Origin: an uncultured Saprospiraceae bacterium
Lineage (GTDB): Bacteria; Bacteroidota; Bacteroidia; Chitinophagales; Saprospiraceae
Length of the DNA stretch: 28,881 nucleotides
Reading direction: 5' to 3'
Assembly (NCBI GenBank): GCA_964537285.1
Contig: CAZHZT010000072.1
Coordinates: 1-28,881, forward strand
Shown here: positions 3,584-28,881 of the stretch, in pieces
How the letters are laid out: each line of letters opens with the position of its first letter
Numbering within the stretch: position 1 is the first letter of the stretch
Notes under the pieces: generated by a model
The model's database searches: none
What the model was told of the DNA's origin: nothing
Seen by the model: only the letters and a program-made list of their open reading frames with translations
Translations under genes and position numbers: made by a program

Positions 3584-6025
3584 ATGCCTTTCGAATCAAA
3601 GACCAGGATTAGGAATATGTTTGAAGAATTATTTGTACCCTCTAGTTTGGAAGAAGAGTCTGACTTCATGCCAATTTTTTCTATAGATGAAGAAGATGAA
3701 CATGTGGATGAAAGCGAATTGACACATTCCGTCCTACCTGTTTTGGCATTAAAGAATACAGTTCTGTTCCCAGGTATCATTGCTCCAATAACGGTGGGCC
3801 GCGACAAATCGCTCAAAGCTATTAACAAAGCCTACAATTCAGAAAGACTCATCGGAGTCCTTTCTCAAAAAGATAGTGACCTGGAAGAACCAGAAATCGA
3901 TGACCTCTACAGAGTAGGAACTGTAGCCCGAATCGTTAAATTACTCAAAATGCCAGATGGCACAGCAACGGCCATATTGCAAGGGCGCAAGCGATTCAAA
4001 TTAGATGAAGTACTTTTTGAAGAACCATACATCAATGGTCGTATAAGCTTCCTTGACTACGCTCCGGTATCCAATGAACTGGAATTCGAAGCACTGCTTT
4101 CTTCCATAAAAGATATGGCCAGAAAAATTATCGAGCTCTCCCCAAATATTCCTTCTGAAGCAATCGTAATGCTCGATAATATTTCCCAGAGTTATTTCTT
4201 GTTGAACTTTATCGCCTCCAACCTTGGGGTCAATGTACGCAAAAAGCAAGCTATCCTTGAGCAAAATGATTTGCTTGAAAAAGCCAAGGACATCCTCAAC
4301 CACATGGATAATGAACTTCAACTACTGGAGTTAAAAGGGCAAATCGAGGCCAAAGTCCGGGGAGATATCGAAAAACAACAACGCGATTATTTCCTTAACC
4401 AACAGCTCAAAACCATTCAGGAAGAACTGGGGCAGAACCCCCAGGAGGAAGAAATTGTCAACCTCATTGAAAGAGGAAAAAAGAAAAAATGGCCCGCTGA
4501 AGTCAAGAAAGTATTCGAAAAAGAGATCAACAAAATTAAACGCACCAATCCTCAAGTAGCTGAATACAGCGTTTTACTCAATTATGTCGAGTTACTTCTC
4601 GATCTACCCTGGGAAGACTATACAAAAGATAATTTTAACCTCAAAAAAGTACAAAACGTACTGGACAAAGATCATTATGGGCTCGAAAAAGTTAAAGAGC
4701 GCATCCTGGAACACCTGGCCGTACTTAAACTTAAAGGGGATATGAAGGCCCCGATTGTATGCCTGGTCGGGCCTCCCGGCGTGGGAAAAACTTCTTTGGG
4801 CAAATCTATTGCAAAAGCGCTGAAGCGAAAGTTTGTGCGCATGTCTCTCGGTGGCCTGCACGATGAATCGGAAATTCGTGGGCACCGGAAAACATACATA
4901 GGAGCAATGCCTGGCCGTATCATTCAATCTTTGAAAAAAGCCCAATCTTCCAATCCGGTATTTATATTAGATGAAATTGATAAAGTAGGTAAAGATTTTA
5001 GAGGAGACCCCTCTTCTGCTTTGCTCGAAGTACTTGATCCGGAACAAAACACCCATTTCTCAGATAACTACCTGGAAATTGAATACGATCTCTCAAAAGT
5101 TCTTTTCATTGCCACCGCTAACTCCTTGAGCACCATTCAACCGGCTCTTCTTGATCGAATGGAAATTATAGAAATCAATGGCTACTCCGCTGAAGAGAAA
5201 GTCGAAATAGCCAAAAGACACTTAATCCCCAAACAGCGTAAAGAACATGGATTAGACGGGCAGCACGTGCGCTTCAAAAACGAGATCATCGCTAAAATAA
5301 TTGCAGACTACACCAGAGAGTCGGGTGTGCGTTCATTAGATCGAACCATGGCTGCCGTAATGCGCAATATCGCTAAAAAAGTGGCCATGGAGGAAACGTA
5401 TTCGATAACCATTCGCGAAGAGGAGTTGAAAGACATTCTGGGCGCTCCTAAGTTTTCTGCCGATTTATATCAAGAACAACAACCTTATGGCGTTGCTATC
5501 GGTTTGGCATGGACTCGAGTGGGCGGCGATATCCTTTTCATCGAAGTGAGCTTGAGTAAAGGAAAAGGCAAACTAACCCTGACGGGAAATTTGGGCGATG
5601 TGATGAAAGAATCTGCCACTACCGCCCTTAGCTACCTGAAATCAAATAGCGAAGCTCTTGGTATTCCATCCAAATCTTTTGAAGAAACGGATATCCACGT
5701 TCACGTGCCACAGGGAGCTATTCCTAAAGATGGTCCATCTGCAGGAATCACCATGCTGTCAGCTTTGGCCTCAGCGTTCAATAAGAAATCCATCAAGCCC
5801 TTTCTGGCTATGACGGGAGAGATCACCCTCAGAGGAAAGGTCCTGCCGGTCGGTGGCATCAAAGAAAAGATCCTGGCAGCAAAACGGGCAGGTATCAATG
5901 AAATCATTCTTTGTAAAGAAAATAAAAAGGATATTGAGGAAATTAACGAGGAGTATATTAAAGACCTGAACTTTCAATATGTTGATAATATGCAGGAAGT
6001 GTTGGATATAGCAGTCGGGTTTTAA
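3584..6025 (+). CDS. lon: ATP-dependent Lon protease (LonA). The first ATG is used. The ORF-track start at 3575 is a TTG.
   Basis: LON N-domain '[23 protein letters not shown]', Walker A '[15 protein letters not shown]', Walker B 'FILDEIDK', and the catalytic-serine motif '[11 protein letters not shown]' near the C-terminus. Confidence 0.95.
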
Positions 6026-7280: not shown

Positions 7281-10200
7281 ATGACGCCCGCACAACCTTA
7301 CCAGCCTAAGCACAAAGTACGTCTTGTTACAGCTGCTTCCCTATTCGACGGCCATGATGCCGCTATTAACATCATGCGCCGAATCATGCAACGATCTGGT
7401 GCCGAAATAATACATCTTGGCCACAACCGATCCGTCAGAGAAATTGTCGATACGGCGATTCAGGAGGATGTTCAAGGCATTGCCATCACTTCCTATCAAG
7501 GTGGTCATGTGGAATACCTGAAATATATGTATGACCTGCTAAGAGAAAAAGGAGCCGGCCATATAAAAATATTTGGCGGCGGCGGTGGGACCATATTACC
7601 CTCTGAAATCGAAGAACTGCACACCTACGGCATCGATAGAATATACTCCCCTGACGATGGCCGTGAAATGGGGCTTCAAGGAATGATCAATGATGTCCTT
7701 CAAAATTGCGACTTCCCGACCGGTGTCAACCTGAATGGGGAACTAAAAGCATTTACAAGCAAAAACCCTAAAGCTATCGCGCGGATGATCTCGGCCATCG
7801 AGAATTTTCCAGATGAAAACCAGGAATGGCTCGTAAACATGCAAACAGAAATAAGAAAAAATCAGAAAACCATTCCGGTCCTGGGCATTACCGGAACAGG
7901 TGGAGCGGGAAAATCCAGCTTAGTCGATGAATTGGTTCGCCGTTTCCTGATCGATTTTGAAGATAAAACCATTGCCGTCGTTTCCGTTGATCCTTCCAAA
8001 AGAAAAACCGGAGGTGCTCTGCTGGGAGACCGGATCCGCATGAACGCCATCAGCAATGACCGGGTCTATATGCGTTCCCTGGCTACTCGCCAGTCTAATC
8101 TTGCGCTTTCTAAACATGTTCAAGGCGCAGTGGATATTTTAAAAGCCGCTCAGTTCGACTTGATCATCCTGGAAACCTCCGGTATCGGACAATCTGACAC
8201 GGAAATTGTCGACCATTCTGATGTTTCACTATATGTAATGACCCCGGAATACGGGGCAGCTACCCAGCTCGAAAAAATTGATATGCTGGATTTCGCTAAC
8301 ATTATTGCGATCAACAAATTCGATAAACGCGGAGCCTTGGATGCACTCCGAGACGTTAAGAAACAATATAAGCGCAATCACGGCCTCTGGGACACACCCA
8401 ATGAAGATATACCTGTTTTTGGCACTATCGCTTCTCAGTTCAACGACCCGGGGATGAATACCCTCTACCGGGTTATCATGGATAAATTAGTGGAAAAAAC
8501 CCAGGCTGACCTGCCTTCTAATTATTTGGTCAGCAAGGAAATGAGTGAAAAAATCTATATAATCCCTCCCAATCGAACACGCTACCTTTCTGAAATTTCT
8601 GAGAACAATCGCAACTATGATAAATTCGTAGAAAAACAAGAGGAGATTGCACGTAAGCTCTTCAGCTTGAAAAACGCTATCGATGCACTTAATGAGCAGG
8701 AAATCGACCATAAAGAAACGGTCATTCAAAGCCTTGAAAAACGATACAATGACCTGGAACTGGATATCAATGGTGATGCCAAGCGTATCCTGGATGGCTG
8801 GGAAGAGAAAAAAGCTGCTTATGCCGGGGATGAATTTATATACAAAGTCAGAAACAAAGAAATCAGAGTACCTACTTTCACTACCTCATTGTCGCATTCG
8901 CGTATTCCCAGAGTAATCCTTCCTAAATTCAAAGATTGGGGAGAGATCATTCGCTGGGCTATGCAGGAAAATGTTCCTGGCGAGTTTCCTTACACAGCTG
9001 GTGTTTTCCCCTTCAAGCGCAAAGGAGAAGATCCAACCCGTATGTTCGCAGGAGAAGGCGGGCCTGAAAGAACGAATCGCCGTTTTCATTACCTCTCCTA
9101 TGATATGCCGGCAAATCGCCTTTCTACAGCCTTCGATTCGGTAACACTTTATGGCGAAGACCCCGATCATCGTCCCGATATATATGGTAAAATTGGTAAT
9201 TCAGGGGTGAGCGTTTGCTGCCTGGATGATGCTAAAAAGCTATACTCCGGTTTTGATCTTTGCGACCCGAAAACTTCAGTCTCCATGACCATAAATGGTC
9301 CGGCAGCTACCATTTGCGCTTTCTTCATGAATGCAGCTATTGATCAACAATGCGAGCGATACATTATTGAAAATGGCTTACAAGATAAAGTTGAGGCAAA
9401 GCTCAAGGAATTATACGATGATAAAAACCTGCCAAGGCCACAATACAGAGGGGATATTCCGCAAGGCAACAACAAATTAGGGCTTTTACTTTTGGGAATC
9501 TCCGGAGATCAGGTTTTAGATGAGCCAGTTTACAAAGAACTCAAAGCTAAAGCCCTTTCGGCCGTTAGAGGTACCGTACAGGCTGATATATTGAAGGAGG
9601 ATCAAGCTCAAAATACTTGTATTTTCTCTACAGAGTTTTCATTGAAATTAATGGGAGATGTACAGGAATACTTTATCCAAAACAAGGTTCGGAACTTCTA
9701 TTCCGTATCCATTTCCGGTTACCATATAGCAGAGGCCGGAGCTAATCCGATTAGCCAACTTGCCTTTACCTTAGCAAACGGATTCACCTTTGTCGAGTAT
9801 TACCTAAGCCGCGGAATGAATATTGACGACTTCGCCCCTAATTTATCTTTCTTCTTCTCCAATGGCGTGGATCCGGAATATGCTGTGATTGGCCGCGTTG
9901 CCAGAAGGATATGGGCAAAAGCCTTAAAACATAAATACGGTGCTAACGAACGCTCTCAAAAACTTAAATACCATATTCAGACTTCCGGTCGCTCCCTTCA
10001 TGCTCAGGAAATCAGCTTCAACGATATACGAACAACCCTACAAGCATTATATGCTATTTATGACAACTGCAACTCTTTGCATACCAACGCTTATGATGAG
10101 GCCATCACTACACCCACAGAAGAAAGTGTGCGCCGCGCAGTAGCGATTCAGATGATCATTAACCATGAACTGGGATTAGCCAAAAACGAAAATCCATTAC

Positions 10201-10667
10201 AGGGTTCTTTTATAATTGAGGAGTTGACGGACCTGGTGGAAGAAGCTGTCTTAAGTGAATTTGATCGCATCACTGAACGGGGTGGTGTGCTTGGTGCTAT
10301 GGAAACCATGTACCAGCGCAGCAAGATCCAGGAAGAAAGCCTGTATTATGAAACGCTTAAACACACGGGAGAATATCCCATTATTGGTGTAAATACGTTT
10401 TTAAGTAAAGAAGGCTCACCCACGGTTATTCCGCAGGAAGTAATCCGCTCCACTTCGGAAGAAAAAGAAGCTCAAATCAGTACCCGCGATAATTTGCACA
10501 ATGCATCGGCAGAAAAGGGAGCGCAGGCTCTTCGTCAATTGCAGGAGGCATCTATCAATAACCGCAATATCTTTGAAGAATTGATGGAGGCTACAAAATA
10601 CTGCTCTTTGGGGCAGATCACCAATGCCTTGTATGAAGTAGGCGGGCAATATAGGAGGAATATGTAA
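7281..10667 (+). CDS. icmF: Fused isobutyryl-CoA mutase (IcmF): a B12-binding domain, a MeaB-like G-protein chaperone and an acyl-CoA mutase catalytic domain in one 1128-aa polypeptide.
   Basis: N-terminal cobalamin-binding 'DGHDAAINI...GGGG' (DxHxxG-type). Central P-loop GTPase '[17 protein letters not shown]', MeaB/ArgK-like. A C-terminal ~550-aa mutase TIM-barrel region ('YHIAEAG', 'IGVNTF'). The length and domain order match IcmF. Confidence 0.85.
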
Positions 10668-11854: not shown

Positions 11855-14026
11855 ATGGCAACTTATGTATTTATTATCATCGGCGGGGTCATCGTCCTGC
11901 TGAGTGTAGGGATCCTTGCGGCTATCGTTTCCTGGTATAAGAAGACCCCTCAGGGCCAGGCACTGGTTCGAACCGGTAGCGGCGGAACTAAAGTCGCTTT
12001 CGATCGAGGAATCTTTGTCATCCCCGTTCTTCATATGGTCGAAACAATGGAGCTTTCTGTAAAAACCGTCGAAATTGCCCGTATGAAAGAAGATGGGCTG
12101 ATTTGTAAGGACAATATGCGGGCAGACATCAAAGTCGTCTTCTTTGTTCGCGTAAATCAAAACGTCGATGACATTCAGAAAGTGGCTCAAACCATTGGAT
12201 GTATCAGGGCTTCTGACCCCACGACCCTGAACAACCTGTTTGAAGCCAAATTCTCAGAAGCCCTGAAAACCGTTGGTAAACGCTTCGAATTTGTAGAACT
12301 CTACGATAATCGAGAAAAGTTCAAACAAGCTATCATCAACATTATAGGCTCCGATCTGAATGGCTATGTGCTGGATGATTGCGCTATCGACTATTTGGAA
12401 CAGACTCCGATGGAGTTCTTAAAACAAGATAATATCCTTGACTCCGAAGGTATTAAAAAGATTGCTGAACTTACCGCTGTTCAAAAAATCAAGGCCAACC
12501 AAATTCGTCGCGAAGAAGAAAAAACCATTAAAGAACAGAACGTCGAAGCTAAAGAAGCTATCCTTGAATATGATCGACAATTGACGGAAAAAGAAGAACG
12601 TCAAAAAAGGGAAATCGCTAATATCCGCGCTCGCGAAGCGGCTGAAATTGCTAAGATAAATGAAGAAGAAAGGCTGCGTTCTGAGATGGTACGCATCCAA
12701 ACAGAAGAGGAGCTGGCTATAGCCGAAGAAAATAAAGCACGCCAGGTCATTGTTGCTGCCAAAAGTAAGGAACGTACAGAGGCCATCGAAAATGAACGTG
12801 TACAAAAGGATCGCTTATTGGAACAAACCGAACGTGAACGCATCGTTACACTAGCCGAAATCGAAAAGCAGCGGGCCATTGAAGAAGAGAAAAAGAACAT
12901 CCAGGATGTCATCAAAGAGCGAATCATCGTTGAGAAAAAAGTGGTTGAAGAAGAAGAAAAAATTAAAGACACCCGCGAATTGGCAACGGCTAATCGTTCC
13001 AAAGAAGTAGCGTTGATTAAGGCCGATGAAACCGGAGAAGCTACTATAATAAAGCGCCGCAAGGAGGCAGAAGCAGAAAAACTAGCCGCTGAGATCCAGG
13101 CAAAAACCATGTTGATCGAAGCAGAAGCTCAGAAAAATGCAGCCGAAAAAGAAGCGGAAGCTCGTAAAATTAACGCAGAAGCAAAAGCCGCTGAGGAAGC
13201 AACCATTGGCCTGTCTGAAGCTCAAGTCACTGAAGCTAAAGCCAGAGCCAAAGAGGAAGAAGGCAATGTTGAGGCAAAAATCATTGAACAAAAAGCAGTG
13301 GCAGAAGCAAATGGTATCTCAGCGAAAGCAGAAGCTCTCCGCAAACAAGGAAATATGGAAGCCGAAGTATTGTTCGAAAAAGGTCAGTCTGAAGCTAAAG
13401 TCATCGAATTACAATCCCTGGCAAAAGCCAAAGGTACTGCGGAGCAAGGCTCAGCAGAAGCTTCTTCTTTGGAAAGCAAGCTATTAGCTGAAGCTAAAGG
13501 CGTAGAACAGAAAGCCATGGCCATGCAAAAACTGGACGGCGTCGGCAAAGAGCACGAAGAGTTTAAGTTACGCCTGGAAAAAGAAAAAGAAATTGCACTG
13601 GCAAATATCAATATCCAGGCTAAAATCGCTGAAGCACAGGCTCAAGTTCTGGCTGAAGCATTTAAGAAAGCTAATATTGACTTGGTTGGTGGCGAAGCTT
13701 CTTTTGTTAACAACATCCTTAATGCCATTAATCGGGGTAAAACCATCGATGGATTAGTAAATAATAGCGAAGTGCTTTCAGAGTTAAAAAATGGTTTGTT
13801 ATCTAATAATGCTCAAGGCTTGGGTAGCCTGGTTACGCGGCTTCGAAACCTGATTCAGGAAATGGGCATTTCTACAGAAGATATTAAGAACCTGACATTG
13901 TCTTCGCTGCTGCTTAAGTTGCAATCTCAGGCCACCGATGGCAAGCGCTCAATTGTCGAAGATTTGATGAATACAGTGGCTGGTTTGGGCATTGGTGATC
14001 AGGAGGTGAAAGCGTTGCTTTCGTAA
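11855..14026 (+). CDS. Flotillin/SPFH-domain protein, YqiK-like, with an extended Ala/Glu/Lys-rich coiled-coil tail (723 aa)
   Basis: N-terminal TM helix. 'ALVRTGSGGTKVAFDRGIFVIPVLHMVETMELSVKTVEIARMKEDGLICKDNMRADIKVVFFVRVN' is the SPFH/flotillin core. It is followed by about 350 aa of EA-rich heptad repeats. Confidence 0.9.
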   Translation: MATYVFIIIGGVIVLLSVGILAAIVSWYKKTPQGQALVRTGSGGTKVAFDRGIFVIPVLHMVETMELSVKTVEIARMKEDGLICKDNMRADIKVVFFVRVNQNVDDIQKVAQTIGCIRASDPTTLNNLFEAKFSEALKTVGKRFEFVELYDNREKFKQAIINIIGSDLNGYVLDDCAIDYLEQTPMEFLKQDNILDSEGIKKIAELTAVQKIKANQIRREEEKTIKEQNVEAKEAILEYDRQLTEKEERQKREIANIRAREAAEIAKINEEERLRSEMVRIQTEEELAIAEENKARQVIVAAKSKERTEAIENERVQKDRLLEQTERERIVTLAEIEKQRAIEEEKKNIQDVIKERIIVEKKVVEEEEKIKDTRELATANRSKEVALIKADETGEATIIKRRKEAEAEKLAAEIQAKTMLIEAEAQKNAAEKEAEARKINAEAKAAEEATIGLSEAQVTEAKARAKEEEGNVEAKIIEQKAVAEANGISAKAEALRKQGNMEAEVLFEKGQSEAKVIELQSLAKAKGTAEQGSAEASSLESKLLAEAKGVEQKAMAMQKLDGVGKEHEEFKLRLEKEKEIALANINIQAKIAEAQAQVLAEAFKKANIDLVGGEASFVNNILNAINRGKTIDGLVNNSEVLSELKNGLLSNNAQGLGSLVTRLRNLIQEMGISTEDIKNLTLSSLLLKLQSQATDGKRSIVEDLMNTVAGLGIGDQEVKALLS

Positions 14027-14040
14027 TTTTCCATTGCTAG

Positions 14041-14108
14041 CGTTTGGTGAAGGCTGAAGCCTTCGTCGTTGCGGATACTGTGACGAAGGCTTTAGCCTTC
14101 GCCGAACG
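14041..14108. repeat. BIME-like pair of REP-type palindromic units in inverted orientation (cgtttggtGAAGGCTgaAGCCTTCgtc ... gacGAAGGCTttAGCCTTCgccgaacg). They lie in the flotillin-to-ATPase intergenic spacer.
   Basis: The unit family matches the palindrome carried by the 74-bp tandem repeats at 28627..28881. Confidence 0.7.
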
Positions 14109-14156
14109 TAATATAAAACGTCAAACTGCATCAACCACATTTTAAAGTTGCTTATA

Positions 14157-17100
14157 ATGACAAATAACCCTTCCAATGAACTAGAGAGAGGCAGTTATGA
14201 AATCATACGGAATCGACTCCATAAACAAAGTCAAGAACTTCAAAATCGCCTCGATAAACTCAATAACCTCAGAAAAAAAGTCTTTGGAAACGTTGAGTTC
14301 AAACTCGTTTCCAACGATCGCATCAATACCTCTAATTATTGTATTGCCAGAGATATTGCCGCTTTTGGCAATTACTGCCTCTTTGGATATAACGTGCAGA
14401 TTGGCTTGCGCTCAGAGACCACCCTGCGCGATGTCTTTAGCCTCTACCAATACAAAGATCAGCGTTTCCAGGAACAAGAGCTGACACTCCTAAACGATGA
14501 CAAGTTTAAAGCGGATTTTAAAAACCTTTATAGATATTATAGAAATGCCTTCTTTACAAAATTTGTAAAACAAGGACCTTTCCTTTATATGGTATTCCAG
14601 CTCTCTGACAAAGTCGGGGATTACAAATCATTTAAATGGCTACAAAAAGAAGAGCACTTGGAGTATGTCGATGGCCGAAGTGAACATGAGCTTAAACGTC
14701 CGGATCAATATGAATTCCAATGGACCCGGGCACATCGCGAAATGTATCGCAATGGAGAACATCCCCACATTTCCATCCTCGACAGGGTGTTTGTCGAAAC
14801 AGTAGGCGGAGATCTGACCATTAAAATTGAAGATAATACATCTGATGGACTGGGTATCTATCGCGAGGATGTGGAACATGCCGAGCAAACCCTTGATGAT
14901 GCGGAGTATTTCTTTGCCGACCTTGGCAACATGATCGCCCTGAAAATCAAGCCTTACCAGGAGGCATTTCGCTACTTTATTTTTAATGATAAAACACAAC
15001 AAGTCCAAAGAATTGATGCTCTGGGAGAATCTGGAATCTTATTACCGGATCGCCAGGGCTTGGTATTCCCGAATGGCTATTATTTGCAATCCGGAGATTA
15101 TAAGATCTTCAATCCCGATCTTAAAAAAAAGCATTTTGAGAAAAGAATCGTTTCCTCCAATGGCGAAGACTTTCTCTATGTCTTTTTTAATGATGAAAAA
15201 GGAACTTATGTTATTCTCCCCTACAACATTATTGAGCAAAAGGCAAACATTCCTATATACTGTAACGGGTTTACCTTATTTCCCAATGGAGAACTGGCCA
15301 TTTTCAGAAGTGAAAACGAACCTACTAAACATCATGTCATTCAGATTTGGCAAACCCCCTTTCTAAAAGGAGAACCTGCCCCTTCCCAGCATTCTGATGA
15401 ATTCATATTCAAAATTGGCAACAAGGAAGTGGTTAAGGCTATGGCTGAAATCAATGACGTACTTATCCTTTGCAGGAAAGAAGATTCATACGCCAATTTG
15501 TATGACGATATCCTTAAGGAGTCTACGGATATTCTGGATTCCTTCCACTGGTTGAATCAGGAAAGTACATTCAGAATTGATGAGCCAGTTACTGCCATCA
15601 AAGACATTGCCGCTACGGCTATTGAAGCCTTCGAGAAAAAAGTAGATGCAGAACGAGCAACAAAACAAGAAGTCGAAAAAGTTAACCAATCCTCTCAAAC
15701 GCTTTTTGATAAAATTAAGCGGGCTAACTTCGAATCTGTTGAAGAATACGTCAATACACTCACTCAACTGAGGCAGCTCAGGGGAGAAATCATCTCGCTT
15801 AAGGATCTACGCTATGTGGACGCTGAATTCGTTGACACCCTTGAAAAACAAACCAAAACATTTTTAGCTAAACTTTCTGAAGAGTGTGTCGGCTTTTTGC
15901 TGCAAGACGATGCGCTTTCCCCCTACGAATCCAAAATAAAAGAACACGATGTCCGGATAAAGGAAATCACGACGGTAAAAATTGCCAATGATCTCGAAGA
16001 GGACATTAATAGCACAGGGGCGGCCTTGGAACTACTTATCGATGTAGTAAGCAACCTTAAGATCGAAGATACCACCCAAACTACCCGCATTATTGATAAC
16101 ATTTCCGCACTTTATGTACAATTAAACCAATTAAAGGCTTCTGTTAAAAAAGAAGCCAAAGCCTTGGCAACCAAAGAAGCTTCCGCAGCTTTTGGTGCTC
16201 AATTAAAGTTAATAGATCAAGCTTTAGTCAATTATTTAGACCTGGCTGTCAGCCCTGAAAAATGCGACACCTACCTCACCAAATTGATGGTCCAGATCGA
16301 AGAACTGGAAGGAAAATTTATTGAACTGGATGACTTCATTGAAGAAATTGGTGAGAAAAGAACCCATATATTTTCCGCTTTTGATCAAAAAAAGGCTAGG
16401 CTCCTTGAGGAACGCAACAACCGCACAGCTGCCATTGAGCGTGCCATTGACCGAATGTCGGAAAGCATCCAGAACCGGGCGAATGCTTTATCCGATAAAA
16501 ACGAGATCAACGCCTTCTTCTCTTCTGACCTGATGGTGGACAAGGTTCGGGACCTGATCAGCCAACTCAGAGAGCTTCAGGATAGCAATAAAGCAGATGC
16601 TGCTCAAACCCAATTGAAGCGTTTAAAAGAAGAAGCTCTGCGGCAATTAAGAGATAAAACAGAACTCTATCTGGAAGGTGGAAGCCTCATTCGCTTTGGC
16701 AAACATACTTTCAGCGTCAATATCCAACCCCTCGAACTTACGATGGTAAATCGCGAAGATGCGCTTTTACTTCATCTTACCGGGACGAGTTTTTTCATGC
16801 CTCTGGAAGAACCTGAATTAATAGACACCCAATCTGTTTGGAAGCAAGCTTTGCCTTCAGAAAACGAAACGGTTTACCGAGGAGAGTTTCTGGCTTATTC
16901 CATTTTTAAAAATAAAAATGGCCTTGGAAATAATACAAACTGGGAGGCTTTTGTAAAAGAGGAGGCACAAAGCCGTTATCAGGAAGGATATGTGAAAGGC
17001 GTGCATGATCAGGATGCCGAAAACATCCTAAAAGCCTTGCTGGAATTAGATCGTTCAGTTGGGCTGCTAAGGTTTGCCCCCGATGTCCGTGCATTGGCAC

Positions 17101-19037
17101 GCTATTTCTGGGAGTTACAAATAGACGTTGAAAATCGTGCCTTGTTCCAAGAGCAATTGAAGAGTGCAGGCATGATCCGCCGGTTTTTCCCAACCACCCA
17201 TGAATTTGATTACCTGATCGAAGATATTGAAGGAGTGCTGCGAGCTGAAAGTCGAGATCAACTTATTCGGGCATTCAATAACACAAATGATAAGCTGAGC
17301 AAAGTTGCGCAATATTTATTTTACCAACTTTCAGATGGAGAATCCTTCGTTATCTCTCCGGAAGCTGCTGGTTTATACGATAATTTTAAAAAGTATTTGA
17401 ACATCCAGAAAGGCGATTCCATCTATCAGAATTCCATTGCTGAGCTGGAAAAACATCCGCTGGAACAATTTCAATTGATCAAAAAATGGATGATGGCTTT
17501 CTTGCATCAGCAAAGTTTAACGGATGCCATTCCTTTCCTGAATGAGACCAGCATTTTGCTGCTTTTAGAACCGGAAAACTATTCTAAAAAAGCTGTACTA
17601 AACGCCAAAACTACTTTAAAGCTTGAAAACTTACACGGCGATCACCCTGTTATTGTAAACAACGAATACAAACTTGACTTTCTGGACTTTACAGAAAAAA
17701 TGGAGCATTTTCACAATGAAAGGCTTCCTCTATTCAATCGATTTCAAGAAGCCAAAAGAGGTGTATTGCATAAATATCGGCAAAAACTACAGCTAGAGTC
17801 TTTCAAGCCCAGGGTGCTAAGCTCCTTCGTCCGTAATAAACTAATTGACAAAGTCTATCTCCCTATCATTGGAGATAATCTGGCGAAGCAAATTGGTGTT
17901 GCAGGAGAAAACACCCGAACAGATCGCATGGGTTTGCTCTTACTGATCTCCCCTCCAGGTTATGGCAAGACAAGCCTGATGGAATACGTTGCGAATCAGC
18001 TTGGTTTGATTTTCATGAAAATCAATGGCCCCGCAATTGGTCACAGAGTAACTTCTCTTGATCCTAAGGAAGCACCTAACCGGGCTGCTGCCCAAGAACT
18101 GAACAAGCTCAACCTGGCTTTGGAAATGGGCGATAACATCATGCTTTACCTCGATGATATCCAGCATTGTCACGCCGAGTTTTTGCAAAAATTCATCTCT
18201 TTATGCGATGCTCAACGTAAGATCGAAGGTGTATTCAAGGGGGAAAGCAAACAATACGACCTAAGAGGAAAGCGGGTTTGTGTAGTCATGGCCGGAAACC
18301 CATACACAGAGAGCGGTGAAAAGTTTAAAGTTCCCGACATGCTTGCAAACAGAGCGGATATTTATAATTTGGGAGATATTATCGGAGATACCGAGCACCT
18401 TTTCAAACTAAGTTACATTGAAAATGCGCTAACATCGAATAGTACTCTTCAGCAGTTGGTAAATAAGAGCAACGAGGACATGCACCAACTCATTGAAGTG
18501 GCTGCTACCGGGAATCAGGAGAGCCTGCAACTGGAAGCTGATTATGGAACTGGAGAAGTCGAGGATTATCTATCGGTGCTAAAAAAGCTTATCCTTATCC
18601 GGGACGCTCTGTTTAAGGTCAATAAAAACTATATTCAATCGGCAGCAATGGCTGACGATTATCGCTCTGAACCCGCATTTAAGCTTCAAGGATCATACAG
18701 AGACATGAACAAACTGGCCGAAAAAGTAGTACCCCTTATGAATGAAAAAGAGGTATCTGCTTTGTTATTAACGCATTATGAAAGCGAAGCTCAAACATTA
18801 ACTACAGGAGCAGAAGCTAATTTTTTAAAACTTAAAGAAATCCTAGACCTTATCCAGGCAGACGAGAAGAAACGCTGGGAAGAAATTAAGCATACTTTCC
18901 AGAAAAATAAACTGTTTAGAGGTGGCAATGGCGACAATCCAGTGGCCCAGGCAGTGGCGCAGTTGGGTATGCTTACCGATGAGCTGGAAGGGATAAAAAA
19001 GGCTTTGAATAGCAATAAAGAGGAGGCTGGCTCATAA
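14157..19037 (+). CDS. Giant uncharacterised protein (~1626 aa from the first ATG; the ORF-track start at 14148 is a TTG) with a C-terminal MoxR/AAA_5-like AAA+ ATPase module
   Basis: Walker A 'LLLISPPGYGKTSLMEY' (about nt 17958). Walker B 'IMLYLDDIQHCHAE', parallel to MoxR 'LLDEINRA..E' but with DD. Sensor-1 'VVMAGNPYT', parallel to the AAA_5 'ATQNP/TMNP' motif. An Arg-finger/helix-2-insert region 'DMLANRADIYNLGDI'. The N-terminal ~1250 aa have no motif I can recognise and contain coiled-coil stretches in the middle. Confidence 0.85.
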   Translation: MTNNPSNELERGSYEIIRNRLHKQSQELQNRLDKLNNLRKKVFGNVEFKLVSNDRINTSNYCIARDIAAFGNYCLFGYNVQIGLRSETTLRDVFSLYQYKDQRFQEQELTLLNDDKFKADFKNLYRYYRNAFFTKFVKQGPFLYMVFQLSDKVGDYKSFKWLQKEEHLEYVDGRSEHELKRPDQYEFQWTRAHREMYRNGEHPHISILDRVFVETVGGDLTIKIEDNTSDGLGIYREDVEHAEQTLDDAEYFFADLGNMIALKIKPYQEAFRYFIFNDKTQQVQRIDALGESGILLPDRQGLVFPNGYYLQSGDYKIFNPDLKKKHFEKRIVSSNGEDFLYVFFNDEKGTYVILPYNIIEQKANIPIYCNGFTLFPNGELAIFRSENEPTKHHVIQIWQTPFLKGEPAPSQHSDEFIFKIGNKEVVKAMAEINDVLILCRKEDSYANLYDDILKESTDILDSFHWLNQESTFRIDEPVTAIKDIAATAIEAFEKKVDAERATKQEVEKVNQSSQTLFDKIKRANFESVEEYVNTLTQLRQLRGEIISLKDLRYVDAEFVDTLEKQTKTFLAKLSEECVGFLLQDDALSPYESKIKEHDVRIKEITTVKIANDLEEDINSTGAALELLIDVVSNLKIEDTTQTTRIIDNISALYVQLNQLKASVKKEAKALATKEASAAFGAQLKLIDQALVNYLDLAVSPEKCDTYLTKLMVQIEELEGKFIELDDFIEEIGEKRTHIFSAFDQKKARLLEERNNRTAAIERAIDRMSESIQNRANALSDKNEINAFFSSDLMVDKVRDLISQLRELQDSNKADAAQTQLKRLKEEALRQLRDKTELYLEGGSLIRFGKHTFSVNIQPLELTMVNREDALLLHLTGTSFFMPLEEPELIDTQSVWKQALPSENETVYRGEFLAYSIFKNKNGLGNNTNWEAFVKEEAQSRYQEGYVKGVHDQDAENILKALLELDRSVGLLRFAPDVRALARYFWELQIDVENRALFQEQLKSAGMIRRFFPTTHEFDYLIEDIEGVLRAESRDQLIRAFNNTNDKLSKVAQYLFYQLSDGESFVISPEAAGLYDNFKKYLNIQKGDSIYQNSIAELEKHPLEQFQLIKKWMMAFLHQQSLTDAIPFLNETSILLLLEPENYSKKAVLNAKTTLKLENLHGDHPVIVNNEYKLDFLDFTEKMEHFHNERLPLFNRFQEAKRGVLHKYRQKLQLESFKPRVLSSFVRNKLIDKVYLPIIGDNLAKQIGVAGENTRTDRMGLLLLISPPGYGKTSLMEYVANQLGLIFMKINGPAIGHRVTSLDPKEAPNRAAAQELNKLNLALEMGDNIMLYLDDIQHCHAEFLQKFISLCDAQRKIEGVFKGESKQYDLRGKRVCVVMAGNPYTESGEKFKVPDMLANRADIYNLGDIIGDTEHLFKLSYIENALTSNSTLQQLVNKSNEDMHQLIEVAATGNQESLQLEADYGTGEVEDYLSVLKKLILIRDALFKVNKNYIQSAAMADDYRSEPAFKLQGSYRDMNKLAEKVVPLMNEKEVSALLLTHYESEAQTLTTGAEANFLKLKEILDLIQADEKKRWEEIKHTFQKNKLFRGGNGDNPVAQAVAQLGMLTDELEGIKKALNSNKEEAGS

Positions 19038-27537: not shown

Positions 27538-27540
27538 TTA

Positions 27541-27677
27541 ATCACAGATTACGCAGAGGACACAGATGAGGGTGGAGCTACGCTCCAATTAGATGATTAA
27601 GTCGGCCTGCGGCCGATAAGACTCCTTCTTTGGAGCGTAGCTCCAACACCATCTGTGCCCTCTGCGTAATCTGTGAT
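27541..27677. repeat. 137-bp near-perfect palindrome with 28-nt outer arms (1 mismatch), inner arms ggagctacgctccaa/ttggagcgtagctcc, and centre tcggcctgcggccga. It starts immediately after the VIT-vWA stop codon.
   Basis: Read directly from the sequence. It could form a hairpin of about 60 bp. Confidence 0.7.
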
Positions 27678-27691
27678 CAAACACAAGAAAA

Positions 27692-27880
27692 ATGAAACAC
27701 TTAGTCCTACTTACACTAATTATAACACCACTTTTCCTCTCTGCCCAATTCTACTACCACGATCAATTAGTTGTGAACGCGGACATACTAAACCTCCGCT
27801 CAGAACCCAAAATCGCCAAAAATGTAATTGGGAAACTCAAAGAAGGCACCTATCCCTCTCTTCACAGCCTTTCGATATAG
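27692..27880 (+). pseudogene. Short ORF (62 aa) with a signal peptide and the first half of a bacterial SH3 (SH3b/SH3_3) domain. It is likely a gene remnant. It overlaps the 3' end of the convergent response-regulator gene by 19 nt.
   Basis: 'MKHLVLLTLIITPLFLSAQ', then 'VVNADILNLRSEPKIAKNVIGKLKEGT', which resembles the N-terminal half of SH3_3. The ORF stops before the domain is complete. Confidence 0.35.
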
Positions 27881-28608
27881 CGCAATACCTGAGTTTTTCG
27901 TCGATGAGCAACGGGGATATTCTCGCCATCCTTCATGGTGAGGTATCCGCCGTCTGCTTTGTCAAAAGCAGTGACTTGCGTCATATTTACAAGATAGGAA
28001 TGATGTACCCGCAGAAAACCTTGGTCATGTAGTAGTTGGTCGAACTCCTTTAAGGTACGGGAGACCATAAGCTTTCCAACGTTTTCCACCCGGAAGATGG
28101 TGTAATTGCTATCCGATTGGCAGTAATAAATATCCTGAATCGGCACCACATTAATCTTCTCCGCGGTGTGCAAAGCAATCTTTCTGGGAGCCTGATCAGA
28201 CTTCAACGCATTGAGCAATAATCCTCTACTTTCTGTGCCCGAAAACTGCAGCAAACGTTTGGCTTTTTCAACAGCCTCTTTAAGATCTTCAGGATTGATG
28301 GGCTTCAACAAATAATCAATGGCTGAAAACCTGAAAGCACGAATAGCATGTTCATCCGATACTGTAGTGAAAATTAGTTGAAAATGCATGTCCTCGGGCA
28401 ATATTTCCAGAAGATCAAAGCCCGTACCATCCCCTAGTTCCACATCCAGAAACACAAGATCCGGGTCAAGCTCTTTAATGCACTTAGCCCCCTTTACTAC
28501 ACTATCTGCATGCCCTACAATAGTTACATCAGGACAATAAGTACTTAAGTCCGCTTTCAAGACTTCCAGTGCCTGTGGCATATCTTCAATGATGACTGCT
28601 TTAACCAT
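27862..28608 (-). CDS. LytTR-family two-component response regulator (REC + LytTR DNA-binding domain; 248 aa from MVKAVIIED). The ORF-track start at 28701 would run into the tandem repeats.
   Basis: Receiver 'VIIEDMP...DLVFLDVELGDGTGFDLL' with the phospho-acceptor Asp. C-terminal LytTR region 'IYYCQSDSNYTIFRVENVGKLMVSRTLKEFDQLL...FLRVHHSYLVN'. Confidence 0.85.
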   Translation of the reverse strand: MVKAVIIEDMPQALEVLKADLSTYCPDVTIVGHADSVVKGAKCIKELDPDLVFLDVELGDGTGFDLLEILPEDMHFQLIFTTVSDEHAIRAFRFSAIDYLLKPINPEDLKEAVEKAKRLLQFSGTESRGLLLNALKSDQAPRKIALHTAEKINVVPIQDIYYCQSDSNYTIFRVENVGKLMVSRTLKEFDQLLHDQGFLRVHHSYLVNMTQVTAFDKADGGYLTMKDGENIPVAHRRKTQVLRYIERL

Positions 28609-28626
28609 TTGTATTTGTATTTTAAA

Positions 28627-28881
28627 CTGTTCGGCGAAGGCTACAGCCTTCGCCATTCTAAACGCAAAAATCTGTTTTGCGGACTTGTATAACACTTGCA
28701 TCGTTTGGCGAAGGCTACAGCCTTCGCCATTCTAAACGCAAAAATCTGTCTCGCGGACTTGTATAACACTTGCATCGTTTGGCGAAGGCTACAGCCTTCG
28801 CCATTCTAAACGCAAAAATCTGTCTCGCGGACTTGTATAACACTTGCATCGTTTGGCGAAGGCTACAGCCTTCGCCATTCT
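28627..28881. repeat. Tandem array of a 74-bp unit, at least 3.4 copies, truncated by the window end. Each unit carries the REP-like palindrome GGCGAAGGCTacaAGCCTTCGCC plus an A/T-rich segment with an ACTTG-n6-ACTTG direct repeat. The array begins about 20 bp upstream of the LytTR regulator start codon.
   Basis: The palindrome copies start at 28633, 28707, 28781 and 28855, giving a period of exactly 74. The units are near-identical, with 2-3 substitutions in copy 1. Confidence 0.85.

Follow-up and report, generated by a model that had tools for sequence, protein, structure and literature searches.

A tandem array of REP-like hairpins upstream of a LytTR response regulator gene at the end of a Bacteroidota contig

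At one end of the window (the whole 28,881-bp contig analysed here), all of the sequence available upstream of a LytTR response regulator gene is a tandem repeat. What is this repeat, and does it serve the gene beside it? Our analysis indicates that the array probably arose by tandem amplification of a REP-like hairpin and a short flank, giving a hairpin-seeded minisatellite upstream of the LytTR gene, for which 'REP-like hairpin minisatellite' is the accurate label. The first-pass annotation had offered a minisatellite and a passive REP cluster among its alternatives, and given a second locus of the hairpin in the window and the dispersal of its core among other genomes, these are the readings that fit best. 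The features are collected in Table 1.

Table 1. Coordinates of the repeat array, its parts and the related features in the window
Feature	Position	Strand	Evidence or remark
Tandem array of 74-bp units	28629-28881	no strand	Tandem Repeats Finder (TRF); contig end cuts the array
Array units	28629-28702 (variant), 28703-28776, 28777-28850, 28851-28881 (partial)		
REP-like core GGCGAAGGCT-AC-AGCCTTCGCC, unit 1	28633-28654	no strand	Exact matches, inverted repeats; 0 expected in shuffles
Further array copies of the palindrome core	28707-28728, 28781-28802, 28855-28876		
Extended interrupted 48-nt hairpin, one unit	28695-28742	minus	RNA fold: dG -26.4 kcal/mol, z -4.2
Linker (~26 nt, rest of unit)	28743-28768	no strand	blastn-short, promoter scans
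Response regulator, receiver + LytTR, 248 aa	27862-28608	minus	Pfam PF00072 (1.1e-15), PF04397 (3.3e-18)
Second palindrome locus, inverted doublet	14041-14108	no strand	28-bp REPIN-like hairpin; dG -53.9 kcal/mol, z -10.8

TRF returned a single tandem array with a period of 74, 3.4 copies, 98% matches, no indels and a score of 485, and a separate repeat search of the window gave the same 74-bp register. Because the contig stops inside the array, and because identical 74-bp units are unresolvable by short-read assembly, 3.4 copies is a minimum; the figure is probably a floor set by the assembler and not a biological number. The initial count of at least 3.4 near-identical units is thus correct as a lower bound only. 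The array had also been placed about 20 bp upstream of the regulator start, which agrees with the 21 nt that we measured between the array start and the ATG at 28608 (minus strand). The unit nearest the gene, unit 1, carries mismatches to the later units at 28632, 28676 and 28678, while units 2 and 3 and the partial unit 4 share one sequence, and the last 203 nt (28679-28881) are perfectly periodic. The identity of the distal units therefore points to recent duplication or expansion, or to homogenisation.

Each unit consists of a hairpin part and a linker. The hairpin has a perfect stem of 10-11 bp, (T)GGCGAAGGCT-AC-AGCCTTCGCC(A), with GGCGAAGGCTnnAGCCTTCGCC as its palindrome core, and in its extended 48-nt form it comprises an outer 8-bp stem, internal loops of 5 nt and 3 nt, and an inner 10-bp stem. 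As a short palindrome (~20-60 bp) that forms a stable stem-loop, it has the size and fold by which REP sequences are recognised. When one unit was compared with the window by blastn-short, the hairpin part alone matched elsewhere, and the linker sequence was unique to the array. The linker had been described as A/T-rich; at ~38% G+C, against 40-46% nearby, it is not markedly so. The paired motif ACTTG-N6-ACTTG, reported from the outset in each unit, was indeed found once per complete unit on the plus strand (28757-28772 in one of them) and nowhere else in the window, against a chance expectation of 0.075. Its recurrence from unit to unit is not independent evidence, however, because the repeat itself dictates it.

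Other classes of repeat were considered and rejected. A CRISPR array would have variable spacers, whereas here repetition at 98-100% identity extends over all 74 bp of the unit and leaves none. No RYYYAAC/GTTRRRY ends of an integron attC site were seen by eye. A coding repeat is contradicted by the period, since 74 is not a multiple of 3, and by reading frames that all close within 18-54 codons; the 44-aa open reading frame (ORF) had no Pfam match.

The hairpin, unlike the linker, recurs within the window. Allowing up to 3 mismatches, the 22-nt core was found in the four array copies and at two further positions, 14046-14067 and 14082-14103, with none expected by chance (shuffles). These two copies lie in opposite orientations, 14 nt apart, and share the flank CGTTYGG with the array copies. 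Together they form a doublet that has the architecture of a REPIN and lies in the 121-bp gap (14027-14147) between two co-directional genes, one for a 723-aa protein and the other for a DUF3686/AAA ATPase. The hairpin family is accordingly represented by two extragenic loci in the available 29 kb. Separately, we noted that the genes on either side of the doublet (11855-19037, plus strand) encode a 723-aa protein without a Pfam match and then a 1629-aa protein with DUF3686 ('ATPase involved in DNA repair'), DUF7902 and AAA domains; with the doublet between them, they may constitute a two-gene system.

Beyond this contig, the core belongs to dispersed repeats. A scan of GTDB representative genomes with the pattern GGYGAAGGCTnnAGCCTTCGYC recovered 67 stretches, mostly from Bacteroidota metagenome-assembled genomes (MAGs) with many copies each. 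Core-rich examples included Dysgonamonadaceae bin116 (~20 loci), Tannerella, Symbiothrix, Prevotellaceae, 'Bacteroidetes SZAS-39/40' and a Chitinophagaceae MAG, and in those MAGs the core forms part of conserved modules with several hairpins. A few matches fell in unrelated phyla, roughly as many as we estimate a 20-base pattern would produce by chance in 600 Gb. Several of the GTDB copies (L032, L034 and L050 among them) are ~90-130 nt from where the retrieved stretch ends, as is typical of dispersed repeats that break assemblies. No match to the array hairpin was found in viral contigs. A core of the form GGCGAAGGCT..AGCCTTCGYC is thus common to dispersed repeats across several Bacteroidota families. 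Recurrence of the core and the CGTTYGG flank at the doublet, together with the multiple copies of the core in other Bacteroidota, upholds the original description of the hairpin as REP-like.

Among these genomes we also observed that a conserved ~90-nt module of three hairpins, cctcgctcGGCGAAGGCTCCAGCCTTCGTCgtgttaaaaGCAAGCGtccccGCTTGCgGCATGTCTggaGACATGCtttt, is present many times over in termite-gut Bacteroidales MAGs (within L001-L067, for example, L002 5725, L017 6394 and L060 493). In SZAS-39/40 and the Chitinophagaceae MAG, the same first hairpin is partnered with GTAGCCtcttGGCTAC. There appears to be a widespread palindromic repeat family in Bacteroidota with one common hairpin core.

How closely does the array resemble characterized palindromic repeats? 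The REP/REPIN clusters of Pseudomonas fluorescens SBW25 and the BIME arrays of Escherichia coli consist of G+C-rich palindromes with flanks, arranged head to tail in near-identical units (PMC3116915, PMC3337134). Like these, the array appears to belong to an extragenic, dispersed family found next to or between genes, and the inverted doublet at 14041-14108, of the same family, is REPIN-like. The array unit itself differs from a REPIN in having one hairpin, in direct orientation with a 74-bp period, and no inverted doublet. BIMEs are regularly spaced REPs of alternating orientation (PMC2817692); spacing in the array is likewise regular, but the orientation is the same in every unit. The host differs from that of the REP, REPIN and BIME systems as well, being a Bacteroidota MAG (Saprospiraceae-like by best protein matches) and not a proteobacterium.

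A further comparison is with the CGTC-tagged REPs, which have been reported in Bacteroidetes, are mostly extragenic and lack a dedicated transposase (Di Nocera et al. 2013, PMC3733652). They have an unpaired tag at one end, an 8-9-bp stem, a 4-5-nt loop and a CCA tail (PMC3733652). The doublet copies and their Bacteroidales relatives resemble them in ending in ...CCTTCGTC. In the window, however, CGTC/CGCC lies inside the 10-11-bp stem, and the array copies read CGCC, with no CCA tail outside the stem. Because CGTC occurs only within the stems of the doublet and the array reads CGCC, the array does not belong to the GTAG/CGTC-tagged class.

We therefore considered how a hairpin of this family could have become an array. 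Amplification is favoured over transposition because the hairpins are all in one orientation and the linker occurs nowhere else in the window; a single hairpin-plus-flank module would have been multiplied by unequal recombination or replication slippage, not by repeated transposition. Several observations count against a REP reading. No gene for a RAYT, the Y1 transposase associated with REPs and REPINs and often flanked by them, or for another Y1 transposase is present among the window ORFs, the uniform orientation of the hairpins contrasts with the alternation of BIMEs and the inverted doublets of REPINs, and the terminal GTAG/CGTC tag is not clearly outside the stem. Tandem hairpins of similar spacing are also scarce: the pattern hairpin-N40-65-hairpin gave 0 matches in JGI metagenomes, and TRF, run on the 67 hairpin loci, detected only one two-copy case, of 100 bp (L001).

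The regulator gene is well defined, in that the database protein P0001 has the identical 248 residues; because P0001 agrees over this length and homologues begin MIKA, compared with MVKA here, the start codon at 28608 is sound. In a protein search, the best named relatives were from Saprospiraceae and other Bacteroidota MAGs, at 52-57% identity. The first-pass annotation had called this regulator an orphan, a label that the gene context does not support. Downstream in the window, where a VIT/VWA gene and a 62-aa ORF lie, Pfam searches identified no kinase; the upstream side extends for just 273 bp and consists of array. Four of six relatives examined (L068, L069, L070 and L072) have a kinase of ~1000 aa with Reg_prop/Y_Y_Y/His_kinase (PF06580) domains upstream on the same strand, either directly adjacent or with one gene of 180-200 aa between, and 41-155 bp before the regulator. 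The other two (L073 and L074) have no kinase nearby and are orphans. The window regulator is 52-56% identical to all six and groups with neither the kinase-linked nor the orphan set. On balance, a kinase beyond the contig end is slightly favoured, and the picture of an orphan regulator with a repeat-filled promoter is a product of the contig break inside the repeat. Neither a repeat array nor this hairpin was present upstream of the regulator homologues.

In three of the kinase-linked relatives (L068, L070 and L072, at ~5250-5960), a gene of 178-198 aa without a Pfam match holds a conserved position between the Y_Y_Y/His_kinase and LytTR genes. It may encode an uncharacterised third component of these kinase-regulator systems.

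We searched the array for signals that would give its units a role of their own. No match to Rfam 15 reached the gathering threshold, the sub-threshold matches being to eukaryotic miRNA hairpin models only (E ~1), and no tRNA or tmRNA was detected in the array. A consensus scan found no sigma-70 promoter inside the array. The units had been proposed as terminator modules, but no hairpin with a T-run was found in 28609-28881 on either strand; the array hairpin is followed by ATTCTAAAC on the plus strand and by AAACGATGC on the minus strand. For Bacteroidetes promoters we used a home-made scan for TTTG/TAnnTTTG with a -33 cut-off of 3/4, at which such sites occur window-wide at ~2.6 per kb per strand. 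The array contains a weak -7-like element, GATTTTTG, that agrees with 5/6 of the consensus; every unit has a single copy on the minus strand (from 28746 in one unit), ~7-15 nt upstream of the hairpin. Its paired -33 element is poor (2/4), which places the array site below the cut-off.

With a gap of just 24 nt between the ATG and the first hairpin, the regulator mRNA must begin inside the array or upstream of it. Transcripts from the minus strand therefore probably include the units, folded as successive stable stem-loops, and REP and BIME clusters suggest by analogy that such structures would partially impede read-through, or 3'-5' decay, between the upstream gene and the regulator. In most relatives examined, the gene upstream of the regulator belongs to the kinase operon, and the most plausible effect of the array would be damped read-through into the regulator gene. 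There is a precedent in REP325 of E. coli, a REP cluster between the co-directional genes yjdM and yjdN that acts as a partial terminator and stabilises the upstream mRNA (bioRxiv 10.64898/2026.03.23.713779). The mechanism demonstrated for REP325 is the one we would propose for the array if a kinase operon lies upstream. The array may act, then, as an RNA hairpin array in a leader or intergenic transcript; any effect on the regulator is most likely incidental and not that of a dedicated control device. Read as a REP-like hairpin minisatellite, the locus adds one more example of REP-like palindromes in a tandem cluster, from a Bacteroidota lineage that has received little study, and on present evidence it matters little.

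An array of identical units next to a regulatory gene could instead work as a switch, whether for phase variation or as a rheostat, in which gain or loss of units alters the promoter distance or the number of leader hairpins so that regulator expression varies between cells. The identical distal units would be a substrate for slippage or unequal recombination, and the array lies directly upstream of the regulator gene at a point where assembly failed and the contig ends. We nevertheless regard such a switch as unlikely. The promoter scans found no convincing promoter in or next to the units. Known phase-variable promoter repeats, moreover, mostly have units of 1-7 nt. Nor did the searches yield a second version of the locus for comparison of copy number: a unit-specific 36-mer had 0 matches in GTDB representative genomes and a unit-specific 22-mer had 0 in JGI metagenomes. 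Exact look-ups with the regulator (248- and 279-aa versions, P0001) and one neighbouring protein returned no further contig, and the array's own ORFs (44, 34 and 48 aa) were absent from the protein collection searched. If copy number did vary and change regulator expression, the array would be of modest interest as an example of two-component tuning by a repeat with large units.

The position of the array at the contig end raises the alternative that it, or most of its copies, was made by an assembler circling a de Bruijn cycle and is not a real locus. The length of the periodic tail fits this well: 203 nt is about 129 + 74, that is, one period plus ~129 nt. Common short-read assemblers use k-mers of up to about this size (k ~127), and a tail of 203 nt would be the expected product of one trip round such a cycle. 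But the three mismatches in unit 1 show that the reads covered two or more distinct copies, and a cycle at k ~127 would itself need reads supporting ~200 nt of perfect periodicity, as in the contig. With more than one kind of unit in the reads and support for ~200 nt of periodic sequence, the array can be taken as real, and the artefact concerns the copy number and not the existence of the array. That the array as a whole is an assembly product is improbable.

The neighbouring gene suggests a third possibility, namely that the array is an autoregulatory operator in which the ACTTG-N6-ACTTG of each unit binds the adjacent LytTR regulator, titrating it or recruiting it cooperatively to its own promoter. 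The array abuts the regulator gene, with 21 nt to the ATG, and the 74-bp period corresponds, by our arithmetic, to about seven helical turns, which would align all of the sites along one helical face. LytTR proteins recognise paired repeats (PMC4847170). Autoregulation is common among them, and a short direct repeat close to a LytTR regulator gene recalls the operators of the AgrA, YpdB and ComE type. LytTR sites, however, comprise two direct or inverted repeats of 9-11 nt with 11-13 nt between them (PMC4847170), whereas the repeat here is the 5-nt ACTTG (8 nt as the imperfect ACTTGYAT), spaced 11 bp start to start with a gap of 3-6 nt, and the remainder of the 29-kb window lacks the motif. 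No comparable repeat was found upstream of the six homologues or of their kinase genes. In addition, the whole 74-bp unit is conserved, not the motif alone, and near-perfect identity over this length indicates recent duplication rather than selection for a binding site. An operator array is accordingly quite improbable, and the suggestion of regulator-binding modules made at first reading finds no support in the sequence, as the geometry departs from LytTR architecture (PMC4847170) and the repeat does not recur upstream of homologues.

A broader version of these ideas, in which a copy-number-variable stack of hairpins or regulator-binding modules stands between a sensor-kinase operon and its LytTR regulator, seems to us just as doubtful as the operator. 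If true, expansion and contraction of the stack would tune the kinase-to-regulator ratio, or autoregulation, within a population, making the array a minisatellite rheostat in a two-component system.

Least probable of all is that the array is a series of small transcription units (promoters or small RNA genes), each yielding a hairpin-containing transcript: the octamer GATTTTTG in every unit (5/6, minus strand) and a stable fold per unit (z ~-4) are countered by the poor -33 element (2/4), the lack of a sigma-70 promoter or U-tract terminator, Rfam matches at noise level (E ~1) and the lack of a homologous unit elsewhere for covariation.

Some other features of the window deserve mention. Directly after the VIT/VWA gene lies a large palindrome (27538-27680), with 51-nt arms that are 90% complementary (dG -95 kcal/mol, z -15.8), a 41-nt central segment that forms a hairpin of its own (CGGCCTGCGGCCG) and a small palindrome, GGAGC-TAC-GCTCC, in each arm. 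This appears to be another, unrelated element of a REPIN/MITE-like kind; with this element on one side and the array on the other, the regulator gene is therefore bracketed by repeats. The 62-aa ORF between them (27692-27880, plus strand) has a signal-peptide-like N-terminus and runs convergently into the regulator gene, overlapping its 3' end by 19 nt. It gave a faint partial match to SH3_3 (E 0.095, first 23 of 54 profile positions), and may be the remnant of a truncated SH3-domain gene, hinting at a past rearrangement.

Elsewhere, a single ORF of 1128 aa (7281-10667, plus strand) combines B12-binding, MeaB-like GTPase and methylmalonyl-CoA mutase domains in an architecture like that of the IcmF-type fused mutases. 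Close to the opposite end of the contig (93-126) is a hairpin with a perfect 14-bp stem, CATGAGTCATCCCG-AAAATT-CGGGATGACTCATG; with TTTCAATATT directly after it, this is probably a terminator.
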